Below are positions 18,001 through 24,000 of a stretch of DNA of 64,000 nt, piece after piece. The DNA is from Nitrosopumilus sp. Its GTDB lineage: Archaea; Thermoproteota; Nitrososphaeria; Nitrososphaerales; Nitrosopumilaceae. How positions within the stretch are numbered: the stretch's first letter is position 1; every line of letters begins with the position of its first letter. The stretch spans positions 256,001 through 320,000 of the forward strand of contig CBDBGZ010000009.1 of NCBI GenBank assembly GCA_965205425.1. The letters are read 5' to 3'. A program made the position numbers.

Positions 18001-21000
18001 TTCATTTGAAAAATACGGATTGGAGGACCCCCCCCCTCGTTCTGGTCGTCCGCCATTAATTTCACATAAAACATTACAAAAGATAGAGCAGGAATTTAAG
18101 AGAATTTCAGACGGCATGACTCCAAAAAAACTGATACAATTCATATTTTACAGAACACGCATTACATATCATATCACTCATGTGCGTCGTTTGATGCATA
18201 AATGGAATCTAAAACCAAAGGTTCCACAAAAGGTACATGTGCGAGCAGCATCCAAGGATACATGCCGCAAGTGGAAAAACCGCATCATTTCACGCATAGA
18301 AAAGGCAAAAAAGAAAGGTTTTACAGTATTTATCCAAGACGAGTCTGTATTTGTAGACGATGTACGTTTTGGTAAAAAATACTGGACAGATGCACACCAA
18401 AGATTAATTGTACGTTGGAGAGGATCGCACCAAAGATTTTTGGTTTATGGAAATGATGATAATCAAAGTTTTTTTAGATCGTATGAAAAATTTAATTCAA
18501 TTGCATTTATAGATTATTTGGAAGCAGCTCGTAGAAAATTTGGAAAAATATTTGTTATCGTCGATAGAGCACCGCAACACAAAGCTAATGATGTAAAAAA
18601 TATCTGCGTAAAAACAAAGCTGTCAAACTGGCATATCTTCCAAGAGGGTCTCCACATTTGAGTATGATTGAAGAGATTTGGAGACAGTGCAAACATGTTA
18701 ATGTTGAATCAGAATTTTATGAATCTATTCATGAGATGAGACATACAGTTATGGAATATTTTAGAACGCACAAATTTAATTTGAATATGTATCAGTATTT
18801 TGCAAGAACAATAAATTGAAAAGACTTATGATCTGAGGCATACTATAGTTTTTGGGGACGATTCATTAAATTTTTTGTCAGCATATAGTTTCTTTATTTT
18901 ATTTCTTAATCTTCCGAAATTATTTTTTTGTAACAAATATTCAAAATCAGATTGTACAAAAATTTCTTCAATTTTAACACGTTTAGTTTTTGATAATTGA
19001 ATAGGTATTTTCTGAAAGTTTCTAAAAATTTGCTGTAATGATTTTTCATCTTCAGCTAATACAAATTGCAATAATTATTTAATATCATCATCATACTCAG
19101 ATTTTCTTCTTATCGTAGAACTCATTTCAATTGGATCAATAACTGTAAAACTTTTTGTTATTTTTGTTTCAATTTCTTTTGGGACTTGAATTAAATGAAA
19201 TTTGTCTTGTCTGTCTGGCTCTACAACTAATGTTGAAAATAGAATTAATCTAAGAGGAGGAGGTAAAATTGAAAATATGTTTTGTAAAAACATTAATTCA
19301 TCAGTTTTTAAAATGGCAATTTTTTTCCTTCTTAAAATTCCATAAAGGATTTCTTCAAGTAATTGCAAATCTTGTTTTTTAAGGAATTTAAAATCTGGTG
19401 AGAACGAGGAGATGTTAATATTAACAGGTTTTAATTCTCCACGCAAAGAATCATTTTTTATGAAATATTTTTCAAATATCCTAGAATCAAAATCAACCTC
19501 TTCAAACTCTTTTTCATCTATTACAAACGTGTGGTTGTATAGAGTACCTCGTCGTCCATCATAACCTATGCCTATATTTTTGACAATACTGTATGCAATT
19601 TTGTGATTTGGTAAAAACAACAAGGATCTTGATTCCTCAAATCCACTTATTTTAACACCTAATGGATAAAGATATTTTTCAAGTTTTGATATTATTTCAT
19701 CTGTAATTCCTACACTTTTTGCAATTATTTGATAGCCTTCATTATTTCCTATTTTACCTGCAGTGTAAATGAAATGATCACATGTGGGCATAGGGTTTAC
19801 CCTAGTAGATTTTCATGCAACCACCAAAGAAACTCTGTGTATACAGGATGGCTGTATGATAATGGTTTTGCAACTTTTAGTCCTTCTGTAGAATCAACTT
19901 CATTCTCTCGGTTTCTTTGTACATCAACATGAACCATAAAATATTCTCTCTCTCCGTCATGAATATCTTCAAGTGTATTGTAAAATCTTCGCATATACTG
20001 TTTAACTAAATCTTTAGCAGACACATTTCTATCTTCTAAACTGTCTGCTTTTGTAAGTACTATTGCTATCGGGGTATTGATTCTTTCATTTTTTGAAGTG
20101 TTAGTTGATTTTTTAAAATCTTGTATGGTTGTTAATACTTGACTGTATTGAGTTTGATCTTTTTCCCAATCAGTTTTCATTTTTGAACAATCAAGTAAAA
20201 ACACATATATTTTTGCATATACTGCATATATCATTTCACTATAAGGTTGACCTTTAACTATCCCCATCTGACAAACTTTTACAACTCGTTCATTTCCTCT
20301 TATTTCTTCACCTAAACACATGTTTTTGTAATCTTCACCAGAAATATCTGGAAGTTTAAATTCCATACTACTAGCAGTTGCACCAGTTCCTCTCATTTCA
20401 AAAACAATTTTGTCTCTTGACAATTGTTGGGTTCTTTCTGGAAATTCACCATCTCTTAAACTATTTTCACATGATTCAAGAAATGGTCTTCCATCTTTAG
20501 GATGTGCGCGTAGTTCTGGGCGGTCATCTAGAAAATGGTTATCAATAGCATGGCTTAGTAATGTAATGAATACTGTTTTTCCAGTTCCACTCGGACCCAA
20601 AACTGCCACATTATTTTCATTTTGAATAGCATCAGACGCCTTTAAAATAGGCGTCATCTTTTCTTGTATACTCATTATTCACTATTACCTTCCATGCTGT
20701 TTATCTCACTTTCGGTTTGGATAATTTTTTCATAATTTAATATGTAAAAGCTACAAGTGCCATTTTTGCCTAGTTTTGGATCAGATAGTCCTATACAAGC
20801 TCTGGCTGTACCCACTGTTTTATGATCTTCTTCGGGAAAACACTGTTGTTCATAATCTAAAAATTTGTCAATATGTTTCACAATTATATCATCCACATAT
20901 CCTATGGAATTGTAACCTAGAGCAATTACGTCATCTACAAATTTCTGAATTGTTAGATGAGTAGATTGTTCTCTTGTTGGGAATCTCCAACCAAAATAAG

Positions 21001-24000
21001 CCTCTAGTTTTTCTGAAGTTGTTTGCCAATCTTTGTAAGGAAAATGAGGCAGGTGAGCAATAGTTACAAAGACTTCTTTTTTGATAGTGTATTTTTTAAT
21101 AGTTTCATCTTTTACTAGAGCATCAACTCTATTTCTAATCATTTGTTCAGAAATATCACCCCCATTAAGTCTGAAAACTATTTCTTTCAATGGTTGTCTA
21201 CCTCCACGAACTAATCTTAAAATTAATTGCTCTATTACATGTCTTCTAAGTTTTTCAAGTATTGGTGCAACTATGCCAGTTTGTTCTGCAAGAAGAGACA
21301 TTTGATCAAAAATTGGTACTGTTAACTCACGCATAGGATTCATTTTTTCTTGATGTATAATTTCTCGCCATACTTCATCCCAATCAAATTTACCATGTTC
21401 AAATTCTCTAGGTTGATTTAACGATCCTTGAGATAATTTTGCCATGTCTTGAATATCTCCTTCTCTGCTAGCTACTGCCTTTAGCAAAAAGACATATTCA
21501 TTTCTCAATACACCAACTTTTAATTTTCCATATTCAGTATAATCTGCAGTTTCAATCATAACATCAGATAACGATAAATCTTTCATCACTCTTTTTGTAA
21601 ATAGATCAATTCTACTTCTATCTGGATGAATCAATATTTCATCTGGATATAGGCGTAAATCCTCTTGAGAATATTCCGTTTCAATTATTTTTTCATATCC
21701 TAAATGTTCAGTAAGGGCTTTACACAAGATTTTAAAATCTGATGATTTTTCAACGATTACATCACAGTCTTTAGTAACTGCCTTTAGATTTTTTAATCGC
21801 ATATTTTCTCCACCCATAAGAAATATGCTCATAGGATGATCTATGTTATTTCCAATATCTTCAAACAGTGAAGGGGTTGGTGTTGGAACAATATATTTTT
21901 CTGAATCTACCTCATATAGTTCTGCTTTTGAGATAAATTCACTCCATGGCAAAAACATGCTTTCATTTTTTAATTTTTGTTGTCTAATGTATGCTTCAAC
22001 ATCTAGCCATATGGATGATATATCAAATGATGTTGCAATTTCTCTTAACCGTTTAGTATCTATTTTGTTTTTATTATTAACATAAAACACTATGGATATG
22101 ATCAATCCCATTTTGTCCTTGTCTTTGTAAGATGTCAATATCGAATGAATGATAATATCATGAATATTTAGTGGGTTTTTTTGTTTTACATAATAATCAT
22201 ATGGGGATTCATACGGGATTCCATGATTTGGAAATACTGAAAAAGATGTTAACTCACCTTCAGTTATTTTTCCCTTGGGTACTTTCTTTAGGGTTTTTTC
22301 TGGATCTATGTAAATTACTTCTGCATCAGGTTCATACATTTTTTCTCTTTCAGTTTTTAGTATTTTTGCAAAATCTATCAAATCTGTTTTAGAAGGATCT
22401 ATGTGTATTCTCTCTGGAACTTTCCCCCAATGAAATCCTTGTGTGTCTATTTCTTTTTGTATGACCCCTATTGCTCCAAGATCAGATATTGCTCGATATA
22501 TTGTGGCAGTTGATAATCCAGTATTTGCTAGAATTTCGTTAACCGTTAGTGATTCAGTCAAATATGAAAATACAAGTTCATTAGAGTCTCGTAAAAGATT
22601 CTCTAAATTCCATGATTGAGATATTTTTTTTAGCAGTATTGTTTTTGCATTTTCTTGTAGTTCTATGATATTACCTTCTTTTTTGATAAAACCATCTCGA
22701 AGTAATTTTTTTGTCTGTTCATTGAACTGCCATTCTTTGACTCCACTGATCTCTCTTAATGTGGCAACATCATGGGTATCATTGATTATTGCCTTTACAA
22801 TTGATATGGATGTGTTATTCATTTAGTATCATTAAATCACATAACTATTTAAAGATTTGTGGTTCCATGATACTAAAGTATCATTATACCACTTAAAATC
22901 ACTATTTTTCTAGTTGATTCTAATCCCATTAACTTCCAACCATTTTACGGATTCTCGATATTTTGGCATATGGTTTGCAATTAAATTCCAACAGCGAGAA
23001 TAATATTCTTTGATTTTAAGATGACATAATTCATGAATAATTGAGACTTGGGCATAACTATTTACAAAAATAACTCTCAGTCATTTCCTAACAGCAAAGC
23101 ATTCTCTTTACAGTTCTTGGATTCTCTGCTCCAATTGCACAGTTGTAGTAAACTGTCAACTGATACACAAGAACACAAACCAACACAAATGATTTGACAT
23201 TGTGCAATCCCTTTACAGGCAATACTCGGATGTCAAAAATATCTTTGAGATACTCAAATAGAGGTTCAATTGAGACTTTTCTATCTGCATACAGCTCTTG
23301 ACCAATTACAGAATTGTAAAACTCTACGAGTTTTATTCTCTCTGGCGGCGTATGCAGGTATTGTTTTATTGGAGTAACTAGTCTCAGATTTTTCTTGTTG
23401 CTAAATTGATGCAGTGAACCGTTGTCATATGCAGGATCACATAAGATATTCTCAACAAATCCTGCAAGAGATTCAGTTAGTATTTCATACATCTTGCCGT
23501 CATGAACATTTGCAGTTGAGACATCAGCAGATAAAAGAACAACCAGTTTGCCAGTACTACAACTCATATGCAGTTTGTACCCAAATATCCAACCCTTTGA
23601 TTTTGAAAAACCCCATTTTGTATCAGTATCAATTCCTGAGATTGGTAAACGATTATTCTTCATGTCAGATTTGTGCCATACTGGACCATCTGCTTTTAGC
23701 ATGGAACTATCCACTGATGCAGATATGTCATCGACTAGTTTCTCTGATACAAACAGACTTCCCATATTACTGATTATATCACCAATTGGCAGAACTTGGA
23801 ATCTCCTGTCAATAGTTCTTCTGTCTGGAATTTGAGTTAATTTACAAACCTTGAGCAATTTATCATTGATACTCTTAGTCAAAAGAAAATAATGTAATGT
23901 ATTGTTGCTTGGAATTCTCATCCATGACTTTATGATGAACAGATGCTGTACCATCAGAATTGTAGAGTATACGTACGGTTACCAGGTTTTCAGCATCTCC

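Follow-up and report, generated by a model that had tools for sequence, protein, structure and literature searches.

The window analyzed here, a 64,000-nucleotide stretch of DNA (positions 256,001 to 320,000 of contig CBDBGZ010000009.1) from the marine ammonia-oxidizing archaeon Nitrosopumilus sp., carries a three-gene unit on its minus strand, with every gene at the place given for it in the genome-wide survey's note (Table 1). As that note had it, a 715-aa gene (gene 1) lies directly ahead of a DO-GTPase gene, which is followed by a GAP1-N2 gene, an arrangement borne out by the coordinates and by Pfam. The stop codon of gene 1 and the start codon of the GTPase gene overlap by 1 nt at 20675, GAP1 starts at 19791, and the genes of the cassette are translationally coupled. 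All three genes, as well as the C-terminal domain (CTD) of gene 1, are under purifying selection (dN/dS), and none of the models in PADLOC matches any of the three.

Table 1 Features of the three-gene cassette and its surroundings in the window
Feature	Position	Strand	Remarks
Putative operator/promoter of gene 1	22822..22877	-	Imperfect inverted repeat, two ~20-nt arms; ends at start codon
Palindrome, 8-bp arms	22867-22884		Overlaps the inverted repeat
Gene 1, fused antitoxin-like and nucleotidyltransferase protein	20675..22822	-	715 aa; C-terminal part comprises a winged helix and the CTD
Tandem winged helices (aa 1-165)	22328..22822	-	Structural matches to ArsR/MarR-type regulators, Z ~10-11; weak Pfam TrmB/HTH
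HVO_2833_C-like putative antitoxin domain (aa 166-312)	21887..22327	-	Pfam PF24271, alignment, Atlas
MenT/DUF6036-like nucleotidyltransferase domain (aa 313-525)	21248..21886	-	MenT1, Z 12.1
Third winged helix (aa 526-592)	21047..21247	-	MecI/BlaI-type winged-helix matches, Z ~10
Unnamed helical CTD (aa 593-705)	20708..21046	-	~110 aa; also on RelA/SpoT small synthetases
DO-GTPase, intact	19797..20675	-	292 aa; Pfam, motifs
GAP1-N2 pseudogene	18843..19791	-	Codon 239 is a stop (19075-19077); 3' end lost to IS
IS630-family insertion sequence truncating GAP1	17756..18842	+	~15 further copies in genome
DDE_Tnp_1 insertion sequence upstream of promoter	23042..24192	-	~20 further copies in genome; context, outside unit

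A new structural model of gene 1 has a pLDDT of 89.6, in keeping with the 89 reported for it earlier, and MenT1 is again the top structural match (residues 312–514; Z 12.1–12.3 across comparisons). MenT4 (Z 10.5) and TglT (Z 9.7), which the survey had named as the next matches, do score highly, but LnuA (10.4) and ANT(2'') (10.0), both antibiotic nucleotidyltransferases, are tied between them. By analogy with MenT the gene 1 toxin probably attacks tRNA, a substrate that is not established, because MenT1 leads LnuA and ANT(2'') by less than 2 Z units. The active-site motif is GG-x11-T350-K-D352-x-D354, the spacing given earlier (GG-x9-T-K-D-x-D) having been wrong, and the motif residues are G337 G338, T350-K-D352-C-D354, K448, R453, and D459. 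D354, K448, R453, and D459 are present in 107/107 homologs, T350 in 105, and D352 in 102, the equivalence with the catalytic residues of MenT being taken from motifs and not from a printed superposition. T350 is a Thr that precedes the first catalytic Asp by two positions, just as T39 precedes D41 in MenT1 (PMC11375011). In Pfam the nucleotidyltransferase of gene 1 matches DUF2204 below the cut-off and has no AbiEii/DUF1814 match; its free-standing form is DUF6036. The PF24271 match of the preceding domain is below the cut-off in gene 1 (E 0.011) and above it in a free-standing gene of genome G149 (48.3 bits). That region aligns with 32 free-standing wHTH–wHTH–HVO_2833_C proteins, it has an Atlas lead of 0.88 as well as a weak one to AbiEi_2 (0.76), and we infer that the domain has an antitoxin role; AbiEi is absent from the structural matches of the gene 1 models, in which this domain was not folded alone. 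Gene 1 has 179 relatives of comparable length, and its dN/dS against four close relatives is 0.07–0.29 per domain, the CTD being the least constrained (up to 0.54).

Upstream of gene 1, the arms of the inverted repeat bracket a TATA-like box (22846–22853). Seventeen of 21 symmetric positions pair, a count reached by only 1 of the 1563 ORF upstream regions of the genome. Across 31 homologous upstream regions, 11/18 pairs are altered on both sides (covariation score 0.245, as against 0.134 when shuffled and 0.04–0.08 when slid), and the repeat is found in forms of gene 1 that lack the CTD as well. These observations suggest that a protein binds at the repeat. Because gene 1 brings along an antitoxin-like domain and an operator of the autoregulation type, it is a self-contained, putative toxin–antitoxin unit, one that exists also without the GTPase, the CTD, or GAP1. 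MenAT1/MenAT3 and AbiEi–AbiEii (PMC11375011, 10.64898/2026.01.19.700257, PMC7319586, PMC10435456) share with gene 1 the MenT-like fold, the GG..T-x-D-x-D and K..R..D residues, a Thr at the phosphoacceptor position, a winged-helix antitoxin-like part upstream, and an inverted repeat over the promoter. Unlike them, gene 1 encodes a single fused polypeptide with two N-terminal winged helices plus HVO_2833_C where a recognized AbiEi domain would be expected, belongs to the DUF6036/DUF2204 branch and not to Pfam AbiEii, has an extra winged helix and the CTD, and is followed by a GTPase and GAP1.

The GTPase matches DO-GTPase1 (49.4 bits) and DO-GTPase2 (36.3 bits) in Pfam (cut-off 27) and has G1 GxxxxGKT, G2 T82, G3 DISGE with the family glutamate, and G4 TKAD; D110, G113, and E114 are invariant in sets of 18 and 35 homologs, and dN/dS is 0.08–0.13 against two close relatives. 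A sequence and hydropathy scan of the cassette found no zinc ribbon, transmembrane (TM) helix, or second GTPase. The assignment of the third gene to GAP1-N2 holds as well (PF20013, 28 bits; cut-off 24), with Pfam recognizing the domain in 14 of 16 relatives, the remaining two having been entered without their N terminus; none of 16 GAP1 proteins gave a Pfam match to GAP1-M or GAP1-C. The in-frame stop and terminal insertion sequence (IS) reported for this copy are both there. Contigs of 4/4 runs from 3 studies, one of which runs may be the source sample, cover the TAA without differences, so the stop is genuine and no assembly error, and the IS junction at 18842 is bridged in runs X1 and X4 (34 letters) and in run X2 (26 letters).

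Intact GAP1 proteins of this cassette type are 395–435 aa long and are predicted to fold as a DENN module plus a helical tail, an assignment that rests on a model of the G071 protein, 77% identical to that of the window. This model has a middle alpha/beta part and a C-terminal helical part. Foldseek returned seven matches at E<=0.001, six of them eukaryotic DENN-fold chains and one TagF, with the DENND1A/1B Rab35 GEFs at the top (E 1e-4 to 2e-4); DENN folds include GAPs and TagF besides GEFs. In the VIA comparison, residues 1–266 gave a middling DENN match (Z 8.9, rmsd 4.8, 234 residues), and the model has the Longin, central DENN, and d-DENN arrangement. Thus modeled, residues 1–266 resemble the DENN modules of DENND1A/1B, DENND10, FLCN, and C9orf72, as well as bacterial TagF, in their Longin, central alpha/beta, and helical parts; identity is ~10–12% (rmsd 4.8), and GEF or GAP activity is a prediction. 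As in the Asgard DENN–Rab operons (for these and the DENN modules, see PMC3521125, 10.1101/2020.10.19.343400, and PMC13392464), GAP1 adjoins a small TRAFAC GTPase; unlike there, the partner is a DO-GTPase and not a Rab, and the operon is a mobile one in a non-Asgard archaeon.

The fused gene occurs in 24 of 150 other genomes of the genus (27 matched, minus two RelA/SpoT–CTD genes and one two-gene form). Trios listed by the survey in G144, G071, G137, G111 (two), and G142 are intact, save that gene 1 of G071 is cut by a contig end, and trios are present in two other genera as well (G374, and G529 with frameshifts). The variant in which a pentapeptide-repeat protein replaces gene 1 exists not only in other genera but also within this genus (7 co-directional loci); a third first-gene variant is a RelA/SpoT synthetase, which matches the candidate defense model PDC-S33. 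The cassette does recur at unrelated sites, sometimes beside defense genes (type I restriction, Dsr1-like, AIPR, an AbiE pair), and the unit is old and mobile. No fourth gene is conserved among cassettes. The statement that over half of the loci lack a nearby GTPase is misleading: most hold a 5' GTPase remnant right after the stop of gene 1. At the 23 linked loci gene 1 is uninterrupted in 22, and the GTPase or GAP1 is broken in 17; the switch that these two genes may form would therefore be only an activator or a passenger, and the survival of gene 1 is what one would expect beside an activator but not beside an antitoxin on which it depends.

Linkage to the GTPase tracks the CTD of gene 1. 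Within the genus, the GTPase/GAP1 or a remnant follows at 23/31 loci with the CTD (23/30 minus one duplicate) and at 0/7 loci without it, which represent at least three lineages, two of them nested among trio-bearing clades. Among 11 RelA/SpoT genes in 319 genomes of the family, the two with a detectable CTD both directly precede a DO-GTPase; the other nine have no CTD match, and their genomes have no DO-GTPase match. The Fisher values (3e-4 and 0.018) overstate these associations, because the loci are related. Gene 1 and the archaeal CTD synthetases have in common a C-terminal S-F-Y-V tail that is missing from more distant synthetases, and the CTD, which has no significant match in Pfam, PDB sequences, or Atlas, occurs occasionally on TIR, GIY-YIG, or TPR proteins too. 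No GTPase trace was found at 8 of the 31 CTD-bearing loci, nor at nine loci of other genera (eight with a short or weak CTD, one with a full CTD). Outside the family, in other bacteria and archaea, DO-GTPase/GAP1 was found within <=4 kb at 0/22 RelA/SpoT–CTD loci, some of which are cut by contig ends; the CTD therefore does not act as an adaptor to GTPases in general. The subclades of the GTPase tree match those of the nucleotidyltransferase tree, with one discordance, over a range of divergence down to ~43% identity, which argues for long co-inheritance of the two parts, and the data do not reject the grouping of all CTD-linked GTPases in a single clade (p-AU 0.18).

The cassette resembles the DO-GTPase/GAP1-N2 systems, carried by a few archaea, of Kaur, Burroughs, Iyer, and Aravind (2020; PMC7159879) in its TRAFAC GTPase with a Walker B glutamate, in the GAP1-N2 gene after the GTPase, in its mobility, and in its variable partner gene. 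Unlike those systems, in which zinc ribbons, a second GTPase, and TM helices are usual but not universal, it has no FNIII gene and only one GTPase, lacks zinc ribbons and TM helices, and gives no Pfam GAP1-M/-C match. No FNIII match was found beside the trio of the window or in any of the 40 ORFs (>=120 aa) lying up to 2.5 kb from 11 cassettes, of which ORFs 35 were scanned themselves and 5 via a cluster representative. The first genes found here, encoding a fused toxin–antitoxin-like nucleotidyltransferase, a RelA/SpoT synthetase, and a pentapeptide–TM protein, are not listed for GAP1-N2 in section 29 of PMC7159879, although its Figure 1-source data 1 might list such loci; the term DENN has no occurrence in that paper. 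The proposal that this is an archaeal GAP1-N2 system with a nucleotidyltransferase effector in place of FNIII stands as regards co-inheritance and the missing FNIII, with the nucleotidyltransferase as a putative effector; gene 1 fills the variable-effector slot and does not directly take the place of FNIII, which is a constant component. Like the GAAD/EAD adaptors of effectors that the same source describes for GAP1-N1 systems, the CTD is a small helical domain carried by several kinds of effector, and its presence goes with that of the core system. Unlike EADs, it is not homotypic, with no copy on the GTPase or GAP1 (its profile found neither among 763 ORFs, and the profile probability of CTD against GAP1 is 1.1%); unlike GAAD, it is widespread outside these systems, and the GAP1 here is of N2 type. 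The RelA/SpoT first genes, whose motifs are intact and whose products carry an accessory domain at the C terminus, recall toxSAS toxins and the fused CapRel system (10.1101/2021.04.30.441581, PMC11782079, and PMC9712102); toxSAS and MenT are both able to block tRNA CCA ends. Unlike there, the CTD of the archaeal synthetases has no Pfam match.

The reading we tentatively prefer, with slightly less than even confidence, is that of an abortive-type defense unit in which a DENN–GTPase switch acts by way of the CTD to arm whichever toxin the first gene encodes. The constant switch would comprise the DO-GTPase and the DENN-fold GAP1, and the first gene would be swappable. The winged helices of gene 1 would repress the operon via the observed inverted repeat, and the HVO_2833_C domain would keep its fused enzyme inactive in cis; it would probably do so by driving phosphorylation of the conserved T350, as antitoxins do at T39 of MenT1. 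Judging from its fold and catalytic residues, the released enzyme would most likely add nucleotides to tRNA 3' ends, as its analogs do, and halt translation. GAP1, given its fold, may work in the manner of DENN exchange factors and load the GTPase when it senses infection or stress, and co-occurrence suggests that the active switch would engage the CTD and so free the toxin. RelA/SpoT–CTD proteins would occupy the same slot, with pentapeptide–TM proteins as a separate branch. GAP1 being dead here, the switch is probably off in this genome and the toxin would stay self-neutralized. Several observations weigh against this reading: the CTD-bearing loci without a GTPase trace, the 22 outside synthetase–CTD loci, the weaker constraint on the CTD, the middling DENN match, and the GTPase–GAP1 pairs without a CTD-bearing gene, of which at least 12 go with the CTD-less pentapeptide protein (two of these on the opposite strand) and six have neither.

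It is possible, if doubtful, that two independent modules merely share an operon, a fused toxin–antitoxin gene having recombined into a RelA/SpoT-CTD/GTPase/GAP1 cassette. Gene 1 would then have kept the CTD as its own sensor and would give only an autoregulated promoter and stability to a GTPase–GAP1 cargo that works alone or with other partners. Gene 1 indeed persists without the GTPase, with a TFIIB repeat for the CTD, without a C-terminal domain, or as two genes; the operator in CTD-less forms, the 22 outside loci where the CTD works without the GTPase, and the repeated decay of the switch genes also favor this account, and a single capture event would explain both the CTD–GTPase linkage and the tree congruence. 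Against it, the switch beside gene 1 has been kept under purifying selection over deep divergence, every lineage seen to have lost or replaced the CTD has lost the GTPase too (none of the seven CTD-less loci keeps it), and GTPase–GAP1 pairs are almost always accompanied by a first gene from among the three types.

A reversed direction, in which the nucleotidyltransferase regulates, by nucleotidylating the GTPase or GAP1 or by making a nucleotide signal, and GTPase–GAP1 is the output, appears improbable. Legionella DrrA AMPylates Rab1, and GTPases are bound by nucleotides of the (p)ppGpp type, which RelA/SpoT proteins are able to produce; both CTD-bearing first genes encode nucleotide-transferring enzymes, and small-molecule nucleotidyltransferases score near MenT. 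However, gene 1 stays intact after loss of its supposed target at 17/23 loci, it is built like a MenAT/AbiE system in its antitoxin-like domain, its T350, and its operator, and the GTPase and GAP1 of this type have neither an effector domain nor a TM helix. Least probable of all is a role outside defense, the unit being either a selfish element or a regulator of stress or dormancy that has spread in genomes rich in IS. In its favor, no known defense model matches, many loci lie among IS and housekeeping genes, and S. agalactiae AbiE protected against none of 32 coliphages (10.64898/2026.01.19.700257); the patchy mobile distribution, the exchange of first genes, the defense neighbors at several loci, and the predicted role of DO-GTPase systems in conflict (PMC7159879) speak against it.

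The unit may serve in virus defense. That, in Nitrosopumilaceae, a eukaryote-style DENN-GEF/small-GTPase immune threshold unlocks interchangeable tRNA-attacking toxins, be it a fused MenAT-like enzyme or a RelA/SpoT synthetase, via a shared unnamed docking domain seems to us rather unlikely as a whole; if true, it would for the first time link DO-GTPase/GAP1 systems to a concrete effector, would be the first case of a GTPase-gated toxin–antitoxin, and would hint that DENN–GTPase signaling served conflict before membrane traffic. DO-GTPase/GAP1 systems have so far only been predicted, and the cassette is a minimal soluble three-protein version. Its enzyme is of a kind for which assays are well established, an operator and a phosphoacceptor are predicted, and CTD-less forms, RelA/SpoT swaps, and switch-less remnants offer controls provided by nature. 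Two questions become directly testable: do DENN folds in prokaryotes act as regulators of a GTPase, and what lies under the control of a switch of this sort? Should the GTPase and GAP1 prove to be passengers, an undescribed fused archaeal toxin–antitoxin family with exchangeable C-terminal domains would remain; otherwise, the unit would add a type of defense for marine ammonia-oxidizing archaea.

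The genome-wide survey's note had described three adjacent genes, and all three were found on the minus strand, with the assignments of the DO-GTPase and of GAP1-N2 borne out by Pfam. The 715-aa gene 1 overlaps the GTPase gene by one base, and 5 bases lie between the GTPase stop and the GAP1 start. The unit is present as one copy in this genome, with IS elements on all sides; the IS copies near it each have 5-50 matches elsewhere in the genome. Among the large ORFs close by, one of 421 aa has a C-terminal motif pattern that is trypsin-like by eye, as well as partial second copies in the genome. 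The 218-aa ORF farther off resembles the N-terminal, phospholipase D-like part of DNA phosphorothioation-associated helicases and would be a free-standing version of it.

Features of the window in and around the three-gene unit
Feature	Position	Strand	Remarks
Gene 1, 715 aa	20675-22822	minus	
GTPase, 292 aa	19797-20675	minus	Pfam DO-GTPase1/2 above cut-off
GAP1 gene	start 19791	minus	Pfam GAP1-N2 above cut-off
Imperfect inverted repeat around TATA-like box	22822-22877		directly upstream of gene 1, ending at ATG
IS630-family element	17756-18842		cuts GAP1 at 18842; ~15 further copies in genome
Very dense IS regions	15444-18842 and 23042-29962		at least 8 copies of several families, flanking the unit
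Large ORFs, secreted-looking	14192-15457, 25357-26298, 13518-14165		no Pfam match
ORF, 218 aa	10954-11610		by tRNA-Glu; no Pfam match

The in-frame stop and terminal IS that had been reported for GAP1 are both present in this genome. In particular, codon 239 is TAA where relatives encode Gln, and because the identical stop occurs with zero differences in contigs from four sequencing runs of three studies, an assembly error is ruled out and GAP1 here is a true pseudogene. (Joints with sides of 23-26 letters in this comparison of run contigs were left out of the interpretation.) Three of the runs (X1, X2 and X4) also contain additional contigs of similar depth that match gene 1 and the GTPase (window 20111-22750) at ~90% identity, so that these samples would hold a second strain or another copy (paralogue) of the unit.

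The structural model of gene 1 (pLDDT 89.6, from an alignment of 107 sequences) has, in order, two winged helices, a mixed domain (residues 166-312), the nucleotidyltransferase (312-525) and a third winged helix; behind these comes a helical C-terminal domain (CTD, 593-705). MenT1 is the best fold match of the enzyme domain (Z 12.1, rmsd 3.7, 172 residues), followed by MenT4 (Z 10.5), LnuA (10.4), ANT(2'') (10.0) and TglT (9.7); the order MenT1, MenT4, TglT reported previously stands, with LnuA and ANT(2'') between MenT4 and TglT. Foldseek alone returned no match under E 0.001 for the gene 1 model. The enzyme motif reads GG-x11-T350-K-D352-x-D354, together with K448, R453 and D459, which corrects the earlier spacing of GG-x9; all 107 homologues keep D354, K448, R453 and D459, and 105 keep T350. 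In MenT1, the antitoxin is described as inducing autophosphorylation of T39, beside the catalytic D41, which inactivates the enzyme (PMC11375011), and AbiEi-AbiEii is described as using the same mode of inactivation (10.64898/2026.01.19.700257). Judging from the motif, T350 may be the equivalent of MenT1 T39.

In one other genome (G149) the same parts are split over a pair of genes that overlap, wHTH-wHTH-HVO_2833_C (319 aa) and DUF6036 nucleotidyltransferase-wHTH (278 aa), and residues 166-312 of gene 1 can be aligned to the free-standing wHTH-wHTH-HVO_2833_C family. Searched against the PDB, the profile of this putative antitoxin domain matched winged helices only. Gene 1, a toxin-antitoxin-like fusion protein, would work like MenAT and AbiE; unlike them, it is fused and falls in the DUF6036/HVO_2833 branch. 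In four relatives (L093:3996-6032, L094:7040-9235, L095:6877-8898 and L096:6919-8991) a TFIIB cyclin repeat, assigned to Pfam PF00382 in the first, replaces the CTD, and no GTPase lies downstream.

The inverted repeat upstream of gene 1 pairs at 17 of 21 positions; when 1563 upstream regions of ORFs in this genome were scored, one reached that number. Across the 31 homologous upstream regions with a clear start and sufficient upstream DNA, mean pairing was 14.7 versus 10.9 after shuffling, with one large clade at just 11-14. Both sides have changed in 11 of 18 repeat pairs, and covariation was 0.245, a figure inflated by relatedness, versus 0.134 for shuffled and 0.04-0.08 for slid controls. 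The repeat also precedes CTD-less forms of gene 1; by inspection, none was seen upstream of the RelA/SpoT and pentapeptide genes. Since AbiEi is described as repressing through inverted repeats in its promoter (PMC7319586), it is likely, by analogy, that the winged helices of gene 1 autoregulate through this putative operator.

Among 150 other genomes of the genus, 24 have the fused gene and 19 the GTPase. In the family sample of 319 genomes, 28 had DO-GTPase and 34 had CTD matches, and in the order sample of 226 genomes there were just three weak matches outside the family. Weak GTPase matches in G155, G169 and G206, from another family, came without GAP1 or a partner gene (that of G155 was used solely as outgroup), and a pattern-based search of viral contigs found no match to gene 1 or the GTPase. 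Widely differing flanks agree with the survey's view of a cassette at unrelated sites. The site after FEN1/tRNA-Ser carries a nucleotidyltransferase trio in G144 and, in G145, a trio with a pentapeptide gene, and the site after hisS carries gene 1 alone in G136 and a pentapeptide trio in G144. Certain loci lie near defence genes (type I restriction in G529 and G111, Dsr1-like in G124 and G529, AIPR, an AbiE pair, a Fic gene); at numerous further loci the neighbours are IS and housekeeping genes only. An HD_4 gene resembling small alarmone hydrolases lies immediately upstream of the intact G144 trio, on the opposite strand (L061:9526-10035). Frameshifts in G109, G130 and G529 could be assembly errors.

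The 32 near-complete family GTPases in our tree are preceded by the fused nucleotidyltransferase (12), a RelA/SpoT synthetase (2), a pentapeptide-TM gene that is co-directional (10) or on the opposite strand (2), or something else or a contig end (6). Both synthetases in this position bear the CTD of gene 1, and among the 11 RelA/SpoT genes in the family a GTPase adjoins only the 2 with a detectable CTD. The genus has two small RelA/SpoT synthetases among 119 genomes searched, both in Nitrosopumilus-type archaea and with intact motifs (L099:7676-8665 and L100:7622-8608); that of L099 matches the PADLOC candidate PDC-S33 and adjoins a Dsr1-like gene.

A GTPase, GAP1 or remnant of either accompanies 23 of the 31 CTD-bearing genus loci; the trio is intact at 6 of these and broken at 17. 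At many of the broken loci the GTPase is reduced to its first 30-140 codons, and two of the remnants are visible at the DNA level only (z 25 and 7.9). The statement that more than half of the loci lack a nearby GTPase is misleading, since most retain a 5' remnant of it directly behind the gene 1 stop. No such trace was found at the seven CTD-less loci, of which 2 stop after the third winged helix, 4 have the TFIIB repeat and 1 has the two-gene form. Lone and CTD-less genes are nested inside trio-bearing clades in a quick, midpoint-rooted tree and so look like losses. Left out of these tallies were gene fragments (G111:442026, G119:1176713, G121:853857 and G092:C139), GTPase fragments (G147:252298), and weak, probably chance CTD matches in G439, where the gene is an epimerase, and G516; a protein-level "remnant" in G092 (E 9e-4) did not hold up at the DNA level and was scored as none. 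Nucleotidyltransferase and GTPase subclades match, G374 excepted; a single clade of CTD-linked GTPases was not recovered, yet was not rejected (p-AU 0.18). Remnants, gene overlap and tree congruence rule out chance adjacency of the trio genes. All parts are under purifying selection, weakest on the CTD. A terminal tail absent from the distant synthetases is common to gene 1 and the archaeal synthetases and is a candidate docking element.

As a mobile domain, the CTD is spread widely, with 303 representatives. The carriers scanned, 84 of 150 listed, are mostly RelA/SpoT synthetases; TIR, GIY-YIG and TPR fusions occur once each. Fusions observed (P0233, P0207, P0149, P0144 and P0235) involve a CAP12/Pycsar TIR, a T5orf172 nuclease, TPR repeats (two tandem copies) and unannotated proteins; the repetitive matches P0130 and P0175 were excluded as artefacts. 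The CTD had no usable Atlas match and no PDB sequence match under E 0.04, and whole-model fold searches of gene 1 barely covered it. Of 29 synthetase loci from the genome scan, 23 carry the CTD. One of these, a Nitrosopumilus locus not independent of the genus count, has GTPase and GAP1; no GTPase or GAP1 lies within up to 4 kb of the remaining 22, which rules out the CTD as a universal DO-GTPase adaptor. Profile comparisons led us to reject the CTD as a homotypic EAD.

The GAP1 fold was examined on the intact G071 protein (406 aa, 77% identical, model pLDDT 85). All its Foldseek matches under E 0.001 are DENND1A, DENND1B, the folliculin complex, DENND10 and TagF, and VIA-align against DENND1A gave Z 8.9 over 234 residues (1-266), with unspecific helical matches to the tail scoring higher. 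The model thus identifies GAP1 as a predicted DENN module. DENN modules are described as Rab GEFs (PMC3521125), as lying beside Rab-like GTPases in Asgard archaea (10.1101/2020.10.19.343400) and as widespread in prokaryotes (PMC13392464). DENN goes unmentioned in Kaur et al. 2020, which presents the DO-GTPase-GAP1 pair as having no close relatives elsewhere (PMC7159879). The unit would work like the DO-GTPase/GAP1-N2 systems, with both core genes present; it differs in having no FNIII component and is therefore a variant rather than a canonical member. No description of it was found in the literature searched, a scope that excluded most subscription papers; PMC8195603 contains no DO-GTPase, GAP1 or DENN, and a 2026 ParA preprint merely names DO-GTPases. 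Most pentapeptide-type GTPases (L102-L107 and L109-L111) carry a charged, helical insertion of ~100 aa ahead of the last strand, which CTD-linked GTPases lack, and their GAP1 partners are longer (570-595 aa). At L110:1775-5248 a 1157-aa protein, annotated from motifs, joins GAP1-N2 to a UvrD-like helicase and a probable nuclease tail.

Of the 23 linked loci, 22 have an uninterrupted gene 1 and 17 a broken GTPase-GAP1 switch. Provided that the enzyme is expressed and toxic, the switch is therefore not needed to restrain it; the switch is an activator or a passenger. Our leading reading, held tentatively, is activation: GAP1 would sense and load the GTPase, the active switch would engage the CTD of gene 1, and the enzyme would escape its cis antitoxin and then tail tRNA. 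Somewhat less probable, though a serious contender, is an operon shared by gene 1 and the switch without contact, since the CTD is widespread, a full or short CTD stands without any GTPase trace at eight loci of the genus and nine of other genera, and pentapeptide cassettes do without a CTD, so that one old recombination event could explain the CTD-GTPase linkage. That the enzyme instead regulates the GTPase is improbable, and a non-defence role for the unit slightly more so. Under activation, the nucleotidyltransferase and synthetase-CTD genes would be equivalent outputs, because MenT enzymes and several toxSAS enzymes are both described as blocking tRNA CCA ends. The unnamed mobile CTD that they share deserves definition as a domain.
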